DNA of 64,000 nucleotides, from positions 32,054,001-32,118,000 of the forward strand of contig OZ286470.1 of the NCBI GenBank assembly GCA_965644265.1. Reading direction: 5' to 3'. This stretch comes from Glycera tridactyla. Lineage: Eukaryota. Made by a program: the position numbers and the translations under genes. The notes beneath the pieces were generated by a model. The model saw only the letters and a program-made list of their open reading frames with translations, ran no database searches and was not told the origin of the DNA. Shown one piece after another: positions 19,601-27,508 of the stretch (position 1 is the stretch's first letter; every line of letters starts with the position of its first letter).

Positions 19601-19971
19601 ATTGGGATGCTACAACAGTCATACAAAATGGCAAGTGTGCCTAGGACACGCAAGTCATTCTCCTATCATATATGATTTGATTTTGATTTTAACACATTAT
19701 TTTTATTCGTCAAAAGCATTTACATACACATGGTATACAGTGCATACATCTCCAGGTTGACGAACATAAATTCACATATAATTAACTACGATAATGAAAA
19801 TGGTGATAATGAAAATGAGCGATATGATGAATGATTTGATGAAGGACCCGTTGCAAGAATAAGTTCCAATGTCGAGTATATGTACCTGCCTGCATAATAA
19901 TCTTGTTACTGGAAGCATATACCTCGGCATTTTGAGTAGAGATTTGTTACCTTTCTAATTCAATTCTAATT

Positions 19972-22900
19972 CTAATTCTCCAGCTCCAAGTGTCGCAACT
20001 CCTTTATGAATTTCTTGAATGGTTCAATATTTAACATTGCTGTTTCAGGATATTTTTCAATGTGAGAGTTCCAAGATTTGGAGCCTCTATGTCTGAAGTT
20101 TTTTTCACTGATTTTATATTTCCATCTCGAAATTTTGACCAATTCTTTACTCTTGGATCTGGTTTCATGTGCATGCTGATAATTCACCTGACTACATAAA
20201 GTACATAAAGGGACTGCGACATAGTTAGGAGATAGCATTTTCTTAACATGAATTATTTCATGGTCTCTTCTTCTTGCATCAAGCATTTGTACATCTAGGT
20301 TTTGGTGTAATTGTTTGATATTGAAACGACGAGGTTTTCTGTCTATATGCCGAAGAGCAGAATTTTGCAGTTTCTGAAGGTTATAATTGTCTCTCTGAGA
20401 GAGGCAATTATACAAAATATCCCCGTAATCAAATATCGGCAAGACCAGCGTCTTATACAACATCAGCGCTGTGTTCCTTGTTATAACAGGTCTTAGTCTT
20501 CCTAAGACTCCGATCTTGCCGATTGTTTTAGATCTAATATGCAAAACATGTGATTTGAATGAGAGAATTGGATCGAGTACTATCCCCAAGTATTTCATGG
20601 TTTCAGTCTTCTCAATATCAATCTCAGCCACATTTATCGATATATCAGTATACTTGTGTTGATGCTGAGGAAGACTAAATACCATGTATTTAGTCTTCTT
20701 CAGATTCAAGCTCAATCTGTTCATATTCATCCATCGTGTAACATATTTCATGACATCGTTTAATTGCATTTGTATTGAGATCGAACAAGTACCTTTCACA
20801 CAAATGGCAGTATCATCAGCATAAAGCTGCGAAGACGGAGAGACATTATTCAGATTGCTACTATTTATATTCACATCCATGTGTATGTTAGTTGTGACAT
20901 TCTTCAGGTAATATGGCAAATCATTAATATAGATTGTGAATAACAGAGGTCCTAAAATAGACCCCTGCGGAACGCCACAACTAACTGATTTTGCTGTTGA
21001 GATGCACTTACCCACTCTAGTCTCGCAATATCTAGATTCAAGATAACTTCCTATCCAATTGGTACAGGATTCTGACAGACCAAACATTGATAATTTCTTC
21101 AATAAGAGCGCATGGTCTACCGTGTCGAAAGCCTTCTTTAGGTCCAGAAAGACCGTTCCAACAGCCAATCCCTCCTCCATACCTACATAAATATTATCTA
21201 AAAATTCTAAAAGACATGTGCTGGTGGAACGACCTTTCCGGAAGCCAGACTGCTCCCGACACAGCAGATCCATGCTCTCTATATATCCATATATCTGTTG
21301 ATGGATTAGACGTTCAAGTAGTTTACTCGTGGTCGATAATAGGCTAATAGGTCTGTAGTTTCCTGGAATGGAATGGTCACCTTCTTTATATAATGGGATT
21401 ATTGTGGCCACTTTCCATATATTTGGAAACTTTCCTTCAAGGATGCTTCTATTAAACAAATATTTCAAGATTGGGCAAAGTGCATCTTGACAATTTATCA
21501 GAACCCTTGAGTGGAGACCGTCGTCTCTACCTGATTTCGATGGGTCTATACCATTGATAACATTTTTAATATCAGTATCAGTAATTTCTGTGAGAGTGAA
21601 GGTATCTCTGTATGAAAATGGAAAGCAATCCACCGGGTTGTAGTTACTTGTTGGAATATTAGATGACAACTTGCTTCCTATGGATGCAAAGTGCTCATTC
21701 AAAATTTCAGGAATCTCCGTTTCGTCCGTGCTTTCATTGATCTTATTAATGTTGATATGCTTTTTATCACTGTGCCAGAATTCACGGATTGTTTTCCAAA
21801 GTTTTTTCATGTCAGAGTTGGCATCGTTCAATTTATTATTTATGTAATTTTTCTGTAATGTTATTTTCATTAATTTAGTTCTATTTAAACACTCCTTTTT
21901 ACGTGCATTGTTTACTTCGGTTGGATTCAATTTGAAAATTCTGCTCGATTCCTCTCTCGCCCTAATTGCATCAAGGTATTCTCCATCAACCCAATCTGGT
22001 ACACCTTCTTTTACCTTATATGTTTTCAATGGTATATTCTCATCAACAATTGTACAGATAATGTCCAGCGCGTCCGCCGTACATGCATTGATACACTTTT
22101 TGTCCTGCATCACTCCAGACCAGTTATATTCGTTAATCCGTTTTGAAATTTCATTGTAGTCTGCTAGTTTGTAGTTTCTCAGTTGAATATAATGGTTCTT
22201 TTTAGACTGTCGTTTTTTCTTTCTAGTTGTGAATACGAATGAGTGATCAGAAATACCCAGATCCAAAATTCCGGCCATCCTATAATTTTCAATATTATTC
22301 GTATAGATGTGATCAATGTTTGTGCGACTCGAGGTCGTTACCCGGGTGTGTCCATGGATCAACTGTTTCAATTGATTAGACATACAAAAATTTTCAACGA
22401 GTTTTTTGGATTGGCCAGGTTTGGAGATGTCCAAGTTATCATCTCCTATTAATAAAATATCACTCATACCGAGTTGGGTAATATCAAGTATTTTATTATC
22501 AATGATCTCCAGGGCATTTAGTGCTGAACCTGAGGGGGGTCGATACAGGCAACAAATAAATGTCGGTCTGGTTTGAGGCAAAACCAATTTCATCCATAGG
22601 CATTCAATATCGCTGTTACAAATTGACCAATTTGACTGCCACTCAACATGTCTGTCATCCCTATAGTATGCCATTAAACCTCCACCTCCTCGTAGACCAC
22701 TACCTCCATCTCTATCAAATCGGATCATTTTGTAACCAGGTATAAAAAGTTCATGATCCAAGATCGATTTATTTAGAAAAGTTTCACCCAATAATAAAAT
22801 ATTCAGCCTGCTTTGGTGTAGAAATATTTTTATATCACTAATTTTTCTTACTATGCTCCTCACATTCAAATACCCTATACTAACTCCATTCAGCCTACAT

Positions 22901-23097
22901 AGATCCTTTGGTGTTGTAATGTTTTTGATCGTTTCGGGGGTCCAACGTGGTATGTAACGGGGTAGGGTTTCATGTTGATGTGGTAAAAAAGGTTTGAACC
23001 CGGTCGGGACATTGACAGTATCAGCATAAACATTTGGGTCCGAGTTGATGTTAGGATGAGATGATAGAGATATATTTACTAACTTGGTTAGTCTTGT
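19972..23097 (-). CDS. LINE ORF2p, apurinic endonuclease plus reverse transcriptase (open stop-to-stop frame; the ORF track starts it at TTG 22869)
   Basis: APE motifs LNVRSI, GET, YRPP, GDDN, IDH, SDH. RT motifs GFRKGRST, FLDLKKAFDTVDH, GVPQGSILGPLLF, YADDT, KYLGIVLD. No stops or frameshifts. Confidence 0.95.
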   Translation of the reverse strand, partial: TRLTKLVNISLSSHPNINSDPNVYADTVNVPTGFKPFLPHQHETLPRYIPRWTPETIKNITTPKDLCRLNGVSIGYLNVRSIVRKISDIKIFLHQSRLNILLLGETFLNKSILDHELFIPGYKMIRFDRDGGSGLRGGGGLMAYYRDDRHVEWQSNWSICNSDIECLWMKLVLPQTRPTFICCLYRPPSGSALNALEIIDNKILDITQLGMSDILLIGDDNLDISKPGQSKKLVENFCMSNQLKQLIHGHTRVTTSSRTNIDHIYTNNIENYRMAGILDLGISDHSFVFTTRKKKRQSKKNHYIQLRNYKLADYNEISKRINEYNWSGVMQDKKCINACTADALDIICTIVDENIPLKTYKVKEGVPDWVDGEYLDAIRAREESSRIFKLNPTEVNNARKKECLNRTKLMKITLQKNYINNKLNDANSDMKKLWKTIREFWHSDKKHININKINESTDETEIPEILNEHFASIGSKLSSNIPTSNYNPVDCFPFSYRDTFTLTEITDTDIKNVINGIDPSKSGRDDGLHSRVLINCQDALCPILKYLFNRSILEGKFPNIWKVATIIPLYKEGDHSIPGNYRPISLLSTTSKLLERLIHQQIYGYIESMDLLCREQSGFRKGRSTSTCLLEFLDNIYVGMEEGLAVGTVFLDLKKAFDTVDHALLLKKLSMFGLSESCTNWIGSYLESRYCETRVGKCISTAKSVSCGVPQGSILGPLLFTIYINDLPYYLKNVTTNIHMDVNINSSNLNNVSPSSQLYADDTAICVKGTCSISIQMQLNDVMKYVTRWMNMNRLSLNLKKTKYMVFSLPQHQHKYTDISINVAEIDIEKTETMKYLGIVLDPILSFKSHVLHIRSKTIGKIGVLGRLRPVITRNTALMLYKTLVLPIFDYGDILYNCLSQRDNYNLQKLQNSALRHIDRKPRRFNIKQLHQNLDVQMLDARRRDHEIIHVKKMLSPNYVAVPLCTLCSQVNYQHAHETRSKSKELVKISRWKYKISEKNFRHRGSKSWNSHIEKYPETAMLNIEPFKKFIKELRHLELEN

Positions 23098-23649
23098 TCA
23101 GAATTACACAATAAACACAAGAAAAAATTAGATTGAATCATAAAGTGAGGAGGATCCTATGAATTAATCTGTTAGTATTCAGGTGTTTGATTGGGAACAG
23201 AAGGGGGGGGGGGGGGGTTTCGCTATAGCCCACAATCTTTCTTCCCGAAAACGCTCCCGTCTCCATGGTCCGATTTCTTGAATTCAACTACACATTTGAT
23301 ACATTAAATACTGGTCGCAATATTACATAATCGAATTCATGACATAAAAAATATTTTGAGCAAGGTAATCCTACATAATATGAATAAATCTTGCACCAGG
23401 TAGCCATTTCTTAGATAATTGGTATCACCAGTTTATATACTCATTCGCACAAATTGCTTTCCAAGTTACCAAGGAATTCTATGTACGTTTCGCATTTTAG
23501 TTGGTGATTCCACTTAAATTTTTTGGTATTGCTGTTGACTTTTCTTTGATTTCCAAGTCACCAAGGAATTCATAGTAGCCAGAGCAGCATACCATATATT
23601 CTATAAGTTATACGTAACAAAATATTTGAAATGGCACCTGCTTTCTCAC

Positions 23650-23751
23650 CTTTGTACTCAACAATATGCCACGCTCTGCATACCACCAACCTCCGCAACT
23701 ACAATTACCAATGCATAGTGGTTGTCGCCTGCAACAAACTGTAAGTGACAT
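23650..23751 (-). CDS. Predicted leader exon of ORF2 (MSLTVCCRRQPLCIGNCSCGGWWYAERGILLSTK)
   Basis: The ATG overlaps the esterase stop (TAATG) and is in frame with ORF2. The leader ends at the phase-0 donor AAG|gtgaga. ORF2 has no in-frame ATG upstream of its first endonuclease motifs. Confidence 0.6.
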
Positions 23752-24689
23752 TATTTCTTTTTCTTGGCAGCTGGTTCATCGTTAGAAGCACTACAGTGTG
23801 TTTTCCAGTGCTCCAAAATAGCATTTGTCAAAGATGTTGTCATTGCTTGATAACCCAGATGATTCAGGTGGTTTACATCATAGGGATCACAGAAGCCTCT
23901 CAAGATATGCCCAAACTTCCTCTTGCGTGAACCATGTTTCGCTCTCTTTTTGAACCCCTGTACAATTCCCTCCTTTTGATACATTGTAACATACAGTAAA
24001 TGAACATGGACGAATCTAACAATGCCTGGACCAGCAACCGGAATGTAAGATCTGATATATGAATCCATGCAAATAGCAACCTGTCGTGTTGCTGGTTTCC
24101 AGTAGTTTCTCCACAAAATAGGTGGAACCATTAAGGTAGCCCCAGGAAAATGGTCAGTAAGAATTTCTACTGCGTTTCTAATTCTTGGATAGATATTTTC
24201 AAGAAATTCTATTTGTGAGCTAGTGACAAGTCGCTTCATGATGCGTGGGTCTTTGTGGTATATAGTGTTTAGAGTAAATTTCTGGAAATTGTCCACATCA
24301 TTTGATCCAAGAACCACTATGATGTAATCAGGTTGGATTTTTCTGATTTTGATTTTTTGTAGGGTGTTACCATATTTCTGAAGTCGATGTGGTGAAGTCT
24401 GTCCTTGGAATTCATTAGCAAAGGTGTACCATCTCCCACCTCCAATTCCAAAAAACTTCCATTTCGTTGCGTGGTTCTGCATAGCTTCACTCGTGAAAAG
24501 CCCTACGTTTTCTCCTATACGTCTTGCGTGGCTAGATCCAACGACTAACACACACGGTTCAGCCACTTTATCCAGTAGATGCCTGTTGCGAAACAGGGGA
24601 CAATACGAGCCCATGGAAGTCAATTCGAGTCGAGCCTTTGCTTCCTTCTCATTTTCTGCCGGATCAGTCTGTAATAGATAGACGTACAT
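23751..24689 (-). CDS. LINE-encoded stand-alone SGNH/GDSL esterase, 312 aa (possibly extended N-terminally by a spliced leader exon)
   Basis: All four SGNH blocks are present: VVGSSH (I), GIGGG (II), LGSND (III), DVNH (V). Confidence 0.85.
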   Translation of the reverse strand: MYVYLLQTDPAENEKEAKARLELTSMGSYCPLFRNRHLLDKVAEPCVLVVGSSHARRIGENVGLFTSEAMQNHATKWKFFGIGGGRWYTFANEFQGQTSPHRLQKYGNTLQKIKIRKIQPDYIIVVLGSNDVDNFQKFTLNTIYHKDPRIMKRLVTSSQIEFLENIYPRIRNAVEILTDHFPGATLMVPPILWRNYWKPATRQVAICMDSYIRSYIPVAGPGIVRFVHVHLLYVTMYQKEGIVQGFKKRAKHGSRKRKFGHILRGFCDPYDVNHLNHLGYQAMTTSLTNAILEHWKTHCSASNDEPAAKKKK

Positions 24690-24890
24690 CTTTACCTAAA
24701 CGAAGGTTTATAATTTGAATTACTGACACAATTTATTTCATGCAGTGTCTAGTATATGGCGGTTCATATGGGGTCATGTACGGGGTCGGTACAATTTTAC
24801 GGGTCATTGCAGGCGTTTGACCTATTTTGATTGCGGTATTCTATGTCAATCACATTAAATCTTCTCAAATAGTATTAAAATAACGCTTAC

Positions 24891-24956
24891 CACGAGTTCG
24901 GGATCAAATTCATCATCGAAAGTGTTTATATCCGCTATATGACTATGGAGCTCCAT
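24891..24956 (-). CDS. Predicted leader exon of the esterase ORF (MELHSHIADINTFDDEFDPELV)
   Basis: The ATG overlaps the ORF1 stop (TGATG) and is in frame with the esterase ORF. The leader ends at the phase-0 donor GTG|gtaagc. In-frame acceptors lie at 24697/24696 and 24670/24669. Confidence 0.65.
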
Positions 24957-27391
24957 CAGTTTCCGCCTATCTTGTTCAAAATATCGAAAGCGTTGGAGAG
25001 AGGTAACGAACCAGTTGTCGACTTCTCATTTGCAGAGTTCACGCGTGCTGACCTAGATGGGGTGATGTAAGCGCCACCCCCGGATTCCGCGTCACTTCTA
25101 GAAACTAATGATTCCTTGCTACTTCCGTCAGAGGCAGCTCGACATGCGTGAGTTTTTTTTTCAGTCGCGGTATTTAGCCATTTCTGAAAGAAATCGCTCA
25201 TCTTCGGGTTGTTATCAACTTTAGTCATATTTTCTTGACTCTGCATATCTGTCGGCTGTGAGTTTTTTGGAGTTTCAGAGGTTTGTCGTGGTTTTCGTTG
25301 CCTTTCGAATCTGGATTTAAAAGGGTTTTTAAAAGGGTTTTTGTACTGAGGGCCAACCATTTCGTTTTGTTTTGGAACATTGTATGTGTTCTCATTTAGT
25401 TCAGGAACCCCCTTGTTCGTGACCGATGTCCTATCTTTTGGCAGACCATTTTCCCTCGGGGCCTGACCCAGATTACATAGGTCTGAAAGTTTTTTTGTAG
25501 AAAAAATTGGGATCTTGTCTTTCATTCTGTCTTTAGCTGCGTAAATTTTCCCATCACGGGTCCAGACATGTTCCAACTTCCCTTCTTTTCTTGCTGCTTT
25601 TGCTTTAAGGAAAATTTCATTTTCTCTTTCCGTTAGATGTTCTCGAAAGAAAATTGGAGAATTTCTGATATTAATTTTACAGACAAATAGATCTCTCCTC
25701 CAGTTTGCATGAATGAACCGTACTTTGATTGGCCGAGGCTTCCCCTCTTTACTTGGAGGACCAAAACGTGAAATCTGCACAATGTCACTCTTTTTTATGC
25801 CCAACTTGGTACGCTCATTAATGAGAGTAATTACCTGATCAATCAGTGTTGTGTCTTTGACAAAGGGCAAACCTTCAATGACAATAGTACTAAGACGATC
25901 ATTTTTTTCAAGGACATCCACCTTACCCTCGCATTTGCCAGTCCTGTCACCAATTGCACCAATCGACTCTTTATTTTCTGTAACACGATGTTCAATTGCT
26001 CCTAAGGTCGTCGCAAGTGCTGTTACTTTCTCTAGCAATTCTCTGGTCGGTGGACTCGTATCCCTGTCTTTAATCTCCTCTCGAATTTCCTCTACGAGTT
26101 TAGACAGTCGTGTATCCGACGATTTCAGTTTCTGATCATGGTTGTCTATGATTCTTGCCATATCATCTAAACACTTCATGATACTATTGTTAGTTTCCGC
26201 ATCAAGTTTTGCTGCAGAGTCAATAGCATCTTCCACGAAATTTTCGACACTCTCTTGCCACCCCTCTTTAAATGACTCCAGTTCATCTGATATTCTCGTA
26301 GTCACAGCATCTTCAATATAGTTCGCACACGTGGTCTTAACGGCAGTGTCTAGTACATCATCCATCGATTTCAATTTATGATCTACTGAGTCTTGGATGC
26401 ACAGGGATTCACATTGAATCATAGGTGGTACATTTTCGTTAACATATATAGCACATGTCTCCCGAGCAATATCACGCATTACTTCTTGGCTTCCATTGAA
26501 GGGAATTATTTCGTCCGTAAGTTGCTCTTTGACGATCTGACTCATCATTGTTTTGAATCCAGATGTCGAGGTGATTGTTTTCATCTCATCCCTGATTAAT
26601 TGTCGTACACTCTCAGTTCCCTCATTTCCAGTTTTTGCTGCTGCACTTGGTCTAATACTTGCGATTTTGTCAAGGTGTTCAAATGATTCGATGTCTGAGT
26701 TACGCAATTTCAGTGACAGATCACTTTCATTTGGTATATGAGTCGATGAGCACGGTGGACTGTGCATGTCTACTAGCAGATCACCAGGTACGTTTCGACA
26801 TGCATCGTCGAACACGAGTACAGTTTCACACACATTGGTATTAACACGAGACACTGTGTCTACTGGTAAAATCCCTCTATCAGCAGCAATAATGTCAGAT
26901 GAGTTATGGTGAAAGGACCCCGAGCTAGAATCTAGCTGTTCCTTTATTTGAGCTTGCTCGTTTTGTAGATTGTTTATGTCTCTCCCTGACTGCGATGATT
27001 TAGCACATACCTCAGATTTCGAGAGACCACCCTCACAATGCGACCCGGCAGAATCGTTTATCAGATCTACAGACGATTCTTCAACACTGATTGAATTCGA
27101 ATCAGATTTATCCACTTGATCTGACTCTTTAACACATGGGGGCTCTTTTGACTCGATTGATTGTATTGGCTTTTTCTGGGGAGATGTAGTAGATGACAGT
27201 ACTTCACCGTGTTTTGTGGTTAGCAGGTCCTCTTGCCTATTCACGACGGCCATTTTGGTACGTTCCGTCAACCGCGTCGACCTAGTATGTCTGCTAGTTA
27301 TATCCTCATTGTAATCTCCCAAAGCATGTAGACTTTCTTCCAACTTTTTCCTGACTCGTTTGGCCTTCTTCTTGGCAGATTTCGATGACAT
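24956..27391 (-). CDS. LINE ORF1p, 811 aa; coiled coil plus L1-type RRM and CTD (transposase_22-like)
   Basis: Heptad-rich segment followed by RLSTIVIEGLP...ISRFG...KPRPIKVRF...IFFREHLT...VWTRDGKIY, a motif series typical of L1-type ORF1 in CR1/L2 elements. Confidence 0.85.
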   Translation of the reverse strand: MSSKSAKKKAKRVRKKLEESLHALGDYNEDITSRHTRSTRLTERTKMAVVNRQEDLLTTKHGEVLSSTTSPQKKPIQSIESKEPPCVKESDQVDKSDSNSISVEESSVDLINDSAGSHCEGGLSKSEVCAKSSQSGRDINNLQNEQAQIKEQLDSSSGSFHHNSSDIIAADRGILPVDTVSRVNTNVCETVLVFDDACRNVPGDLLVDMHSPPCSSTHIPNESDLSLKLRNSDIESFEHLDKIASIRPSAAAKTGNEGTESVRQLIRDEMKTITSTSGFKTMMSQIVKEQLTDEIIPFNGSQEVMRDIARETCAIYVNENVPPMIQCESLCIQDSVDHKLKSMDDVLDTAVKTTCANYIEDAVTTRISDELESFKEGWQESVENFVEDAIDSAAKLDAETNNSIMKCLDDMARIIDNHDQKLKSSDTRLSKLVEEIREEIKDRDTSPPTRELLEKVTALATTLGAIEHRVTENKESIGAIGDRTGKCEGKVDVLEKNDRLSTIVIEGLPFVKDTTLIDQVITLINERTKLGIKKSDIVQISRFGPPSKEGKPRPIKVRFIHANWRRDLFVCKINIRNSPIFFREHLTERENEIFLKAKAARKEGKLEHVWTRDGKIYAAKDRMKDKIPIFSTKKLSDLCNLGQAPRENGLPKDRTSVTNKGVPELNENTYNVPKQNEMVGPQYKNPFKNPFKSRFERQRKPRQTSETPKNSQPTDMQSQENMTKVDNNPKMSDFFQKWLNTATEKKTHACRAASDGSSKESLVSRSDAESGGGAYITPSRSARVNSANEKSTTGSLPLSNAFDILNKIGGN

Positions 27392-27414
27392 TATGTTCGT
27401 ATATCTCCAAATAT

Positions 27415-27508
27415 TAGCGATAAGTCCCCTCCGATCTTCTATGTACGTCTACTCCTCACGCATGCTAGCGATAAGTCCCCTCCGATCTTCTATGTACGTC
27501 TACTCCTC
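27415..27508. repeat. Perfect 43-bp direct repeat (2 copies, period 51) in the LINE 5' UTR
   Basis: tagcgataagtcccctccgatcttctatgtacgtctactcctc at 27415-27457 and 27466-27508. Confidence 0.95.

Follow-up and report, generated by a model that had tools for sequence, protein, structure and literature searches.

The 64,000-nt stretch of Glycera tridactyla DNA analysed here (contig OZ286470.1, positions 32,054,001 to 32,118,000 of the forward strand; referred to below as the window, in whose positions all coordinates are given) carries on its minus strand a 7.8 kb retrotransposon without long terminal repeats (non-LTR). It has three long open reading frames (ORFs), namely ORF1, a separate esterase of the SGNH type and an APE-type endonuclease with reverse transcriptase (APE-RT). 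The esterase gene appears to be split: a leader exon of 22 codons, which opens at the stop codon of ORF1, is separated from the esterase exon by a GT-AG intron of 222 nt in phase 0, and comparison of the copies present in the genome, from which its splicing is predicted, makes it almost certain that this is a real spliceosomal intron (Table 1).

The comparison is based on a genome search with the esterase, which gave 127 matches at 126 loci with 40-100% identity (126 loci scored of 3341 first-look candidates). All 126 loci were fetched, and one of them, L078, which is without an alignable esterase start, was left out of the counts. The 125 scorable loci comprise 112 in the main alignment and 13 further loci. 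In addition, 37 family representatives were defined as esterases at most 80% identical to each other. The lineage is unusually diverse and of low copy number: it comprises at least 37 families whose esterases are less than 80% identical. Copies are mostly near full length, and many keep all three frames open.

In the window copy, the letters at the end of ORF1 are as a first-pass annotation had described them: the ORF1 TGA (24958-24956) shares its A with an ATG (24956-24954), from which 66 nt, i.e., 22 codons, lead to GTG|GTAAGC. The same annotation had proposed an intron of either 195 or 222 nt with nine in-frame stops and two possible phase-0 AGs. All of these are present in the letters, but only the 222-nt intron, with 24668 as the first exon base, is general. 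The alternative acceptor at 24695 was rejected as a general form, its AG being kept in 4 of the 12 nearest copies and in 3 of 37 family representatives. By contrast, a phase-0 CAG or TAG is present at 24669|24668 or its equivalent in 119 of 125 scorable loci, 12 of the 13 further loci among them. Of the 112 loci in the main alignment, 94 have CAG and 13 have TAG as the codon directly preceding the aligned start of the esterase, after a T-rich tract, so that 107 loci carry one or the other, versus 0-11 at each of the next 19 codons upstream; the arrangement at this junction is far beyond chance. Since this codon alternates between glutamine and stop, it is read as a splice acceptor and not as coding sequence. 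Furthermore, when the esterase frame was aligned with stops written as X, conservation was found to begin abruptly at the residue encoded from 24668.

The first-pass annotation had suggested conservation of the leader and splice sites across copies as a check, and this is borne out: the in-frame leader with its GT donor is found in 118 of 125 loci and the acceptor in 119. Within the main alignment, a leader profile recovered both leader and donor in 105 of the 112 loci and inspection added two more, with leaders of 26 codons; two leaders are frameshifted, with intact sisters, and three loci are without the region. Among the 13 further loci, 11 have leader and donor. With the stop of ORF1 and the ATG closest to it as the only anchors, and no anchoring on the donor, 79 of 104 loci likewise show a donor-like site at codon 20-23; the loci missing from this count are mostly copies with a broken ORF1. 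Leaders range from 20 to 26 codons, end at a GT donor, and have a length that is a multiple of three in 107 of the 109 copies having one. The introns measure 174-468 nt, fall into all three length classes (52, 27, and 32 of 111), and hold at least two in-frame stops in 105 of 105 copies, while the U2-type features, namely a GT donor with G at +5, a T-rich tract, a YAG acceptor, and the phase, are kept. No conserved donor was found inside the esterase ORF, the best column reaching 6 of 41. Comparison of the 126 loci therefore strongly supports the proposed intron linking leader and esterase. What does not hold is a joining of ORF1 itself to the esterase: ORF1 stops, the leader begins in another frame, and there is no in-frame joining of the two.

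By its substitution pattern, the leader evolves as coding sequence and the intron does not. In 32 independent pairs of copies, 180 synonymous versus 128 non-synonymous codon changes were counted in the leader, whose 393 differences are distributed over codon positions 1, 2, and 3 as 78, 63, and 252; identity in these pairs is 81% in the leader versus 64% in the intron. The leader peptides differ widely, with a core of the D-I-N-x-[LF]-[DE] type common to most families. This bears on the alternative that splicing does not take place: the leader would be a short upstream ORF, translation of the esterase would begin at an ATG of its own or at a non-ATG codon, and the splice-like signals would be due to chance. 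The window copy does have an ATG at 24689, which had led to the caveat that splicing is not strictly required. However, among the 12 nearest copies only 2 retain this ATG, and in 25 of 37 families an in-frame methionine is missing both before the acceptor and from the first 22 residues that the esterase exon encodes, so that the esterase generally needs splicing. Together with the TAG directly before the first conserved residue in 13 loci, which cannot be coding, and the three-fold periodicity of leader length, this makes the alternative very improbable.

Distant relatives of the esterase may extend the pattern. Word-indexed protein searches with the esterase gave no match, and a HMMER profile scan of 1.84 billion proteins returned 122 distant esterases, among which profiles of the ORF1, RT, or leader of this family found no match. 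A recognisable first catalytic block is present in 66 of these homologs, 32 of which reach far enough upstream to be compared. In 11 of the 32, [LFM]Q lies 41-44 residues before the glycine of the catalytic motif, with at most one case at any other distance, and another 11 start instead with a Met-started extension of 17-25 residues. Unspliced sequence would be expected to give the first form and spliced (or intronless) sequence the second, which is suggestive of an intron at the same position.

The element itself is an APE-type non-LTR retrotransposon, or long interspersed nuclear element (LINE). Its ends were set by sister copies L014, L017, and L018, which match it over about 7.8 kb at 94, 83, and 82% identity in BLAST. 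Copies share a common 3' end (a stem, AATAAA, and a short-repeat tail) and are 5' truncated at scattered points, with 765 first-look candidates for element 3' ends versus 75 for 5' ends in the genome DNA search. They are dispersed, the 126 loci lying on many contigs, have no LTRs, and end in (AAATC)n or (AAAAC)n. A candidate target-site duplication of at least 6 nt is seen in 7 of 53 full-length copies, mostly in low-complexity sequence; in CR1/L2 elements, such duplications are usually short or absent. The element most likely belongs to the CR1 group, an assignment made from ORF1 type and tail. Directly upstream of the window copy is a 43-nt duplicate of its own 5' sequence (27508-27466), which resembles a template jump at insertion.

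Among the proteins, the AlphaFold model of the ORF1 core has only human L1 ORF1p at Foldseek ranks 1-11 (2yko, E 4.7e-7), and Pfam Baculo_FP_2nd is found in 13 of 17 ORF1 members. ORF1 is accordingly modelled as type II (L1-like, Tnp22), with a coiled coil followed by an RNA recognition motif (RRM) and a domain at the C-terminus (CTD). The middle open frame has 314 codons (24695-23751). Its product is a predicted SGNH hydrolase with a flavodoxin-like fold: the AlphaFold model (pLDDT, a per-residue confidence measure, of 87.7) matches PAF-acetylhydrolase best in Foldseek (E 2.8e-6), the Pfam GDSL match lies just below cut-off, and the catalytic Ser, Gly, Asn, and His blocks (G44-S45-S46-H47, G121-S122-N123, and H267) are invariant in 39 esterase sequences. 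For the third frame, most of 52 RT homologs carry PF00078 with PF03372 or PF14529. Two other classes were ruled out, i.e., a type IV (ZfL2-1-like) element with an esterase-bearing ORF1, since a stop and an intron separate the esterase from ORF1 in all copies and ORF1 has an RRM, and a Penelope-like element (PLE), a class with a GIY-YIG endonuclease and PLE-type RT where the endonuclease here is APE.

As LINEs copy via their own RNA, a single jump should suffice to remove a spliced intron, and loss of an intron upon retrotransposition is the basis of the standard retrotransposition assay. Yet a leader joined to the esterase, as in a spliced copy, was seen at none of the 126 loci, and DNA searches with the ORF1 end and the RT start, in which only the best candidates were scored and rare spliced copies are possible, found no close copy without the esterase. 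Among 21 new loci compared there, five 5'-truncated copies run unbroken through the second spacer. A mechanism to which we give an even chance, its RNA-level steps being read from the DNA, is that a transcript from an internal promoter is spliced to encode the esterase whereas unspliced full-length RNA is copied. Transcription would start at an initiator-like A at 25106, within the last 50 codons of ORF1, which would place the donor 216 nt from the cap, in a first exon that should be readily spliced to give a 327-aa esterase (22 + 305). Full-length RNA from the 5' end of the element would produce ORF1p and serve as template; on this RNA, the same donor lies about 2.6 kb from the cap and would therefore splice poorly, and since the template is unspliced, the intron would survive retrotransposition. 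Besides, the stop-start overlap may allow ribosomes that come off ORF1 to start again on the leader. For the esterase, an action in trans is envisaged, a plausible role being the membrane targeting that has been proposed for ZfL2-1 (PMC3905857).

The putative internal promoter is a conserved block inside ORF1. The spacing between its TAGT and GGCGC is fixed at 32 nt, while its distance to the leader ATG varies between 147 and 159 nt by whole codons. Three of its bases that fall on third-codon positions, A+1, C+16, and C+34, reach 97, 94, and 91% fixation, when 38 conserved fourfold columns of ORF1 are mostly 30-60% fixed. A box at -28 to -19, which was not used for anchoring, is also conserved, and CpG reaches 8.0 per 100 nt at the block versus 2.4-3.1 further up ORF1. 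There is a G at +29 and at +32, the downstream part matching only partially the consensus of the downstream promoter element. ATGs in strong context number 12, 8, and 1 in the last three 50-nt bins before the leader, versus 11-26 upstream. Elsewhere in the elements, the promoter profile gives no further match; the one exception is L057, where the block and the ORF1 tail are locally repeated in tandem from 165 to 8 nt before the leader ATG. As for the intron, that of the window holds AGGTCA (24823-24818) and TGACCC (24806-24801 and 24776-24771); TGACCT is found in the introns of 28 of 37 families and AGGTCA in 12, versus 1.6 for each in shuffles. We take these words to be nuclear-receptor half-sites. 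Block and intron motifs together read as a putative initiator-type core promoter with first-intron enhancer sites. The palindrome at the 5' end of the element, which we assume to be NRF1-like, likely marks the promoter of the full-length RNA.

Several points weigh against this mechanism or against the evidence used for it. Both splicing and the start site are deduced from genomic DNA. The donor and acceptor weight matrices were trained on the very sites that they score, so that these scores are not independent evidence, as the position counts are. Likewise, the 33 of 37 families that match eight or nine of nine block positions at fixed spacing form a partly circular count, because the block was anchored on these nine positions of its own. 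The block could be a protein-binding RNA element instead of a DNA element, at least one upstream ATG is present in 29 of 33 predicted 5' untranslated regions (UTRs) and would dampen scanning to the leader, and no copy beginning at the putative start site, nor any cluster of truncations there, was found. The distant homologs are known from protein records alone and do not match the leader profile. Finally, the overlap of stop and start in 30 of 37 families, when other non-coding gaps vary freely, is not accounted for by a promoter.

This last point leads to the main rival explanation, which may coexist with the internal-promoter mechanism and which we consider a serious possibility, if somewhat short of an even chance. 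According to it, the intron is real and spliced from full-length RNA, the esterase is made by coupled termination-reinitiation as in SART1 or caliciviruses, the conserved block is an RNA element holding the ribosome, and only the unspliced fraction is retrotransposed. A literal overlap is present in 81 of 105 copies (by family, TRATG in 23 and ATGA in 7), there is switching between the two types on several branches of the esterase tree, and almost all of the remaining offsets fall within -14 to +15. Overlap is the geometry of coupled reinitiation, and these offsets lie in the range covered for it in the cited part of a review (PMC5972666). Translational coupling is thus plausible here, the promoter-like block some 150 nt upstream offering another route. 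However, the calicivirus motif UGGGA of the termination upstream ribosome-binding site (TURBS) is seen in the -100 to -20 zone in no more than 2 of 37 families, the 18S rRNA of this genome contains no complement to GGCGC or CTGGCGG, RNAalifold predicts no consensus pair upstream of the leader in 34 aligned regions, and Rfam gives no match. Reinitiation also leaves unexplained the CpG peak, the initiator-like spacing, and the intron motifs in both orientations. Moreover, spliced full-length RNA would still encode the RT in cis and should leave the intronless copies that are missing from the 126 loci.

In a further variant, the intron is again real and the esterase message arises by an upstream exon or host promoter splicing in, or by cap-independent initiation; stop-start overlap and block would reflect tight packing and conservation of the ORF1 tail as protein. 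This tail does contain conserved peptide motifs (G-A-F and L-S-N-A-F-x-I-L) that could drag DNA conservation along. The second of these, 8-13 codons before the ORF1 stop (about 25000-24970 in the window), is free in synonymous change; a similar motif, S-N-x-F-x-x-L, occurs in linkers preceding the esterase domains of other ORF1 proteins. In the block, however, third-codon bases are fixed where the first two bases vary, and a search for a conserved acceptor inside ORF1 near the leader found none, the best column (7 of 30 families) lying far upstream, all of which renders this variant improbable.

Returning to the internal promoter, a wider picture can be drawn, somewhat more tentatively, of an old and diverse LINE lineage with retrovirus-like expression in spite of having no LTRs: promoter choice, possibly under nuclear-receptor control, would decide on splicing, the RT would be made by a third, AUG-independent route via a hairpin and pairing with the 3' UTR (see below), and the intron position appears to extend to distant esterases.

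Neither a LINE with an RRM-type ORF1 and an esterase as separate genes nor one with a sense intron interrupting a protein was found in the literature, a search that did not cover Repbase; prior cataloguing is possible. CR1-group elements of the Tnp22 type (Daphne, L2, and CR1) share with the present one APE-RT, an L1-type ORF1, a short-repeat 3' tail, and 5' truncation, but the cited excerpts give them one or two ORFs, list Tnp22 and esterase ORF1s as alternatives and never both, and do not mention introns, as opposed to three genes and a predicted intron here (PMC4120745, PMC13343379). The esterase-ORF1 LINEs of the ZfL2-1, CR1, and RTEX kind likewise have an SGNH esterase with intact catalytic residues upstream of APE-RT; as described in the available part of the source, it constitutes the ORF1 protein, preceded by a coiled coil and lacking an RRM, and not a separate intron-split second gene after an RRM-type ORF1 (PMC3905857). 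In SART1, a non-LTR element of silkworm, the RT ORF is coupled to ORF1 directly, with no intron, by a UAAUG/UGAUG overlap at the stop of ORF1 (Kojima 2005, according to the same part of the review cited above, PMC5972666), whereas here the overlap opens a 22-codon exon of an accessory gene and no equivalent upstream structure was found.

Intron retention in retroelements is otherwise known from PLEs, which also keep an intron through transposition (that of the present element being predicted). In Penelope, expression depends on the intron, which is located 46 bp downstream of the start site, and intron retention is cited as separating PLEs from LINEs; PLEs are, however, a separate GIY-YIG class, and the present intron interrupts coding sequence in an APE-type LINE (PMC2377424, in the portion consulted). 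Spliceosomal introns have been noted in L1 and Tad transcripts, and those of TART are antisense, non-coding, and of uncertain importance in the cited section, in contrast to the intron predicted here, which is sense and required to build a protein (PMC1636488). An accessory esterase as a separate unit is also known from LTR elements of bdelloid rotifers (GDSL-esterase ORF3). There, as far as the excerpt goes, ORF3s follow pol and are typically made from spliced messages with a donor near the LTR, while here there are no LTRs and the esterase, with a first exon of its own, lies between ORF1 and RT (PMC5408684).

If a LINE lineage has indeed kept a protein-interrupting intron across families only 40% identical, such elements can part their replicating RNA from a spliced accessory mRNA, as retroviruses do. 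An L1-type RNA-binding ORF1 and an esterase, so far described as alternatives, sit in one element as separate genes. This makes the role of a retrotransposon esterase directly testable, since deleting the gene or blocking its splicing would leave ORF1p and RT unaffected. Annotation of repeats by ORFs would miss the N-terminus of such a gene.

Table 1. Features of the retrotransposon copy, in window positions.
Feature	Position	Strand	Remarks
Whole non-LTR retrotransposon copy	19673..27465	-	7.8 kb; ends by BLAST against sister copies
Conserved 5' end with GCGCATGCG-type palindrome	27450..27465	-	Just before ORF1 in most family representatives
ORF1, 811 aa, ATG at 27391	24956..27391	-	Coiled coil, RRM, and CTD; L1 ORF1p type (modelled)
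Promoter-like block inside ORF1	25068..25134	-	TTAGT (A at 25106), CGCG at +16 to +19, GGCGC at +32 to +36, CTRGCGG-like box near -25
Stop of ORF1 overlapping start of leader (TGATG)	24954..24958	-	Of 105 copies, 64 with TRATG and 17 with ATGA; stop and start close together in the others
Leader exon, coding, 22 codons, first exon of esterase gene (predicted)	24891..24956	-	In-frame leader and GT donor in 118/125 loci
Predicted GT-AG intron, 222 nt, phase 0	24669..24890	-	Donor and acceptor conservation across loci
Esterase exon, 305 codons	23751..24668	-	SGNH hydrolase fold (predicted); basic C-terminal tail
Predicted non-coding mini-exon just past esterase stop	23650..23728	-	Acceptor before 23728, donor after 23650
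Twin 14-nt motifs CCTTGGTRACTTGG	23566-23553, 23474-23461	-	Esterase-RT spacer
6-bp hairpin with 3-nt loop at RT frame start	23078..23092	-	Followed by TCAT-rich tract and GACCC (23040-23036)
APE endonuclease and reverse transcriptase, ORF2-type, 1041 open codons	19972..23097	-	RVT_1 E 2.6e-35
3' UTR	19673..19849	-	GGGTC (19849-19845), TCAT-rich tract, stem TTCGTCA/TGACGAA (19764-19706), AATAAA, (AAATC)n tail

The second junction, between esterase and RT, had been thought to repeat the design of the first. In the window copy itself, a TAATG is indeed present (23753-23749), with AAG|GTGAGA 34 codons on, but of 102 copies whose esterase is intact, only 7 show such an overlap, closely related copies have a broken frame, and there is no conserved acceptor into the RT. 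What is conserved there is a different arrangement, namely an acceptor and, 30-95 nt after it, a donor, both within 150 nt of the esterase stop, in 26 of 36 families versus 0-3 in seven control windows and 1 on the antisense strand. This predicted mini-exon might offer the leader donor an acceptor that skips the esterase, or it might act as a decoy. No acceptor was found between it and the RT. An acceptor-like column inside the APE domain (15 of 30, window 22660) was rejected, as it coincides with a conserved peptide motif and its use would remove the active site, and so was a chain of leader, mini-exon, and RT in one frame, since most mini-exons have stops in the leader frame and no consistent phase.

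The twin CCTTGGTRACTTGG motifs of the esterase-RT spacer, about 90 nt apart, are found in one clade, and TCCCTCGACAGTGGA or TCCTCGCGAACTTGG in the same spacer of other clades (L075-L139). Some families have ATGGC(G/T)GCC words there, presumably YY1-like. Outside the element and upstream of it, two direct repeats of about 120 nt lie on the minus strand at 28440-28180.

The RT frame of the window copy has no ATG ahead of the APE active-site motif, and about 21 of 58 intact RT frames have no methionine before it, a count in which the motif finder misfired in a few cases. The hairpin at the start of this frame occurs in 57 distinct variants, in which variable stem positions are only Watson-Crick or G-U and never C-A, and it lies in all three frames of the RT. 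Just upstream of it, branch-point-like CTRAY words are seen in 19 of 36 families versus 7-10 further up. The 5-nt word at 23040-23036 is complementary to the 3' UTR word at 19849-19845, about 3.2 kb away, in 20 of 22 families scored, making a long-range RNA bridge around the RT ORF possible. Both words adjoin TCAT-rich tracts, and matched changes of the pair are found in three families, GACTC/GAGTC twice and GACCA/TGGTC once.

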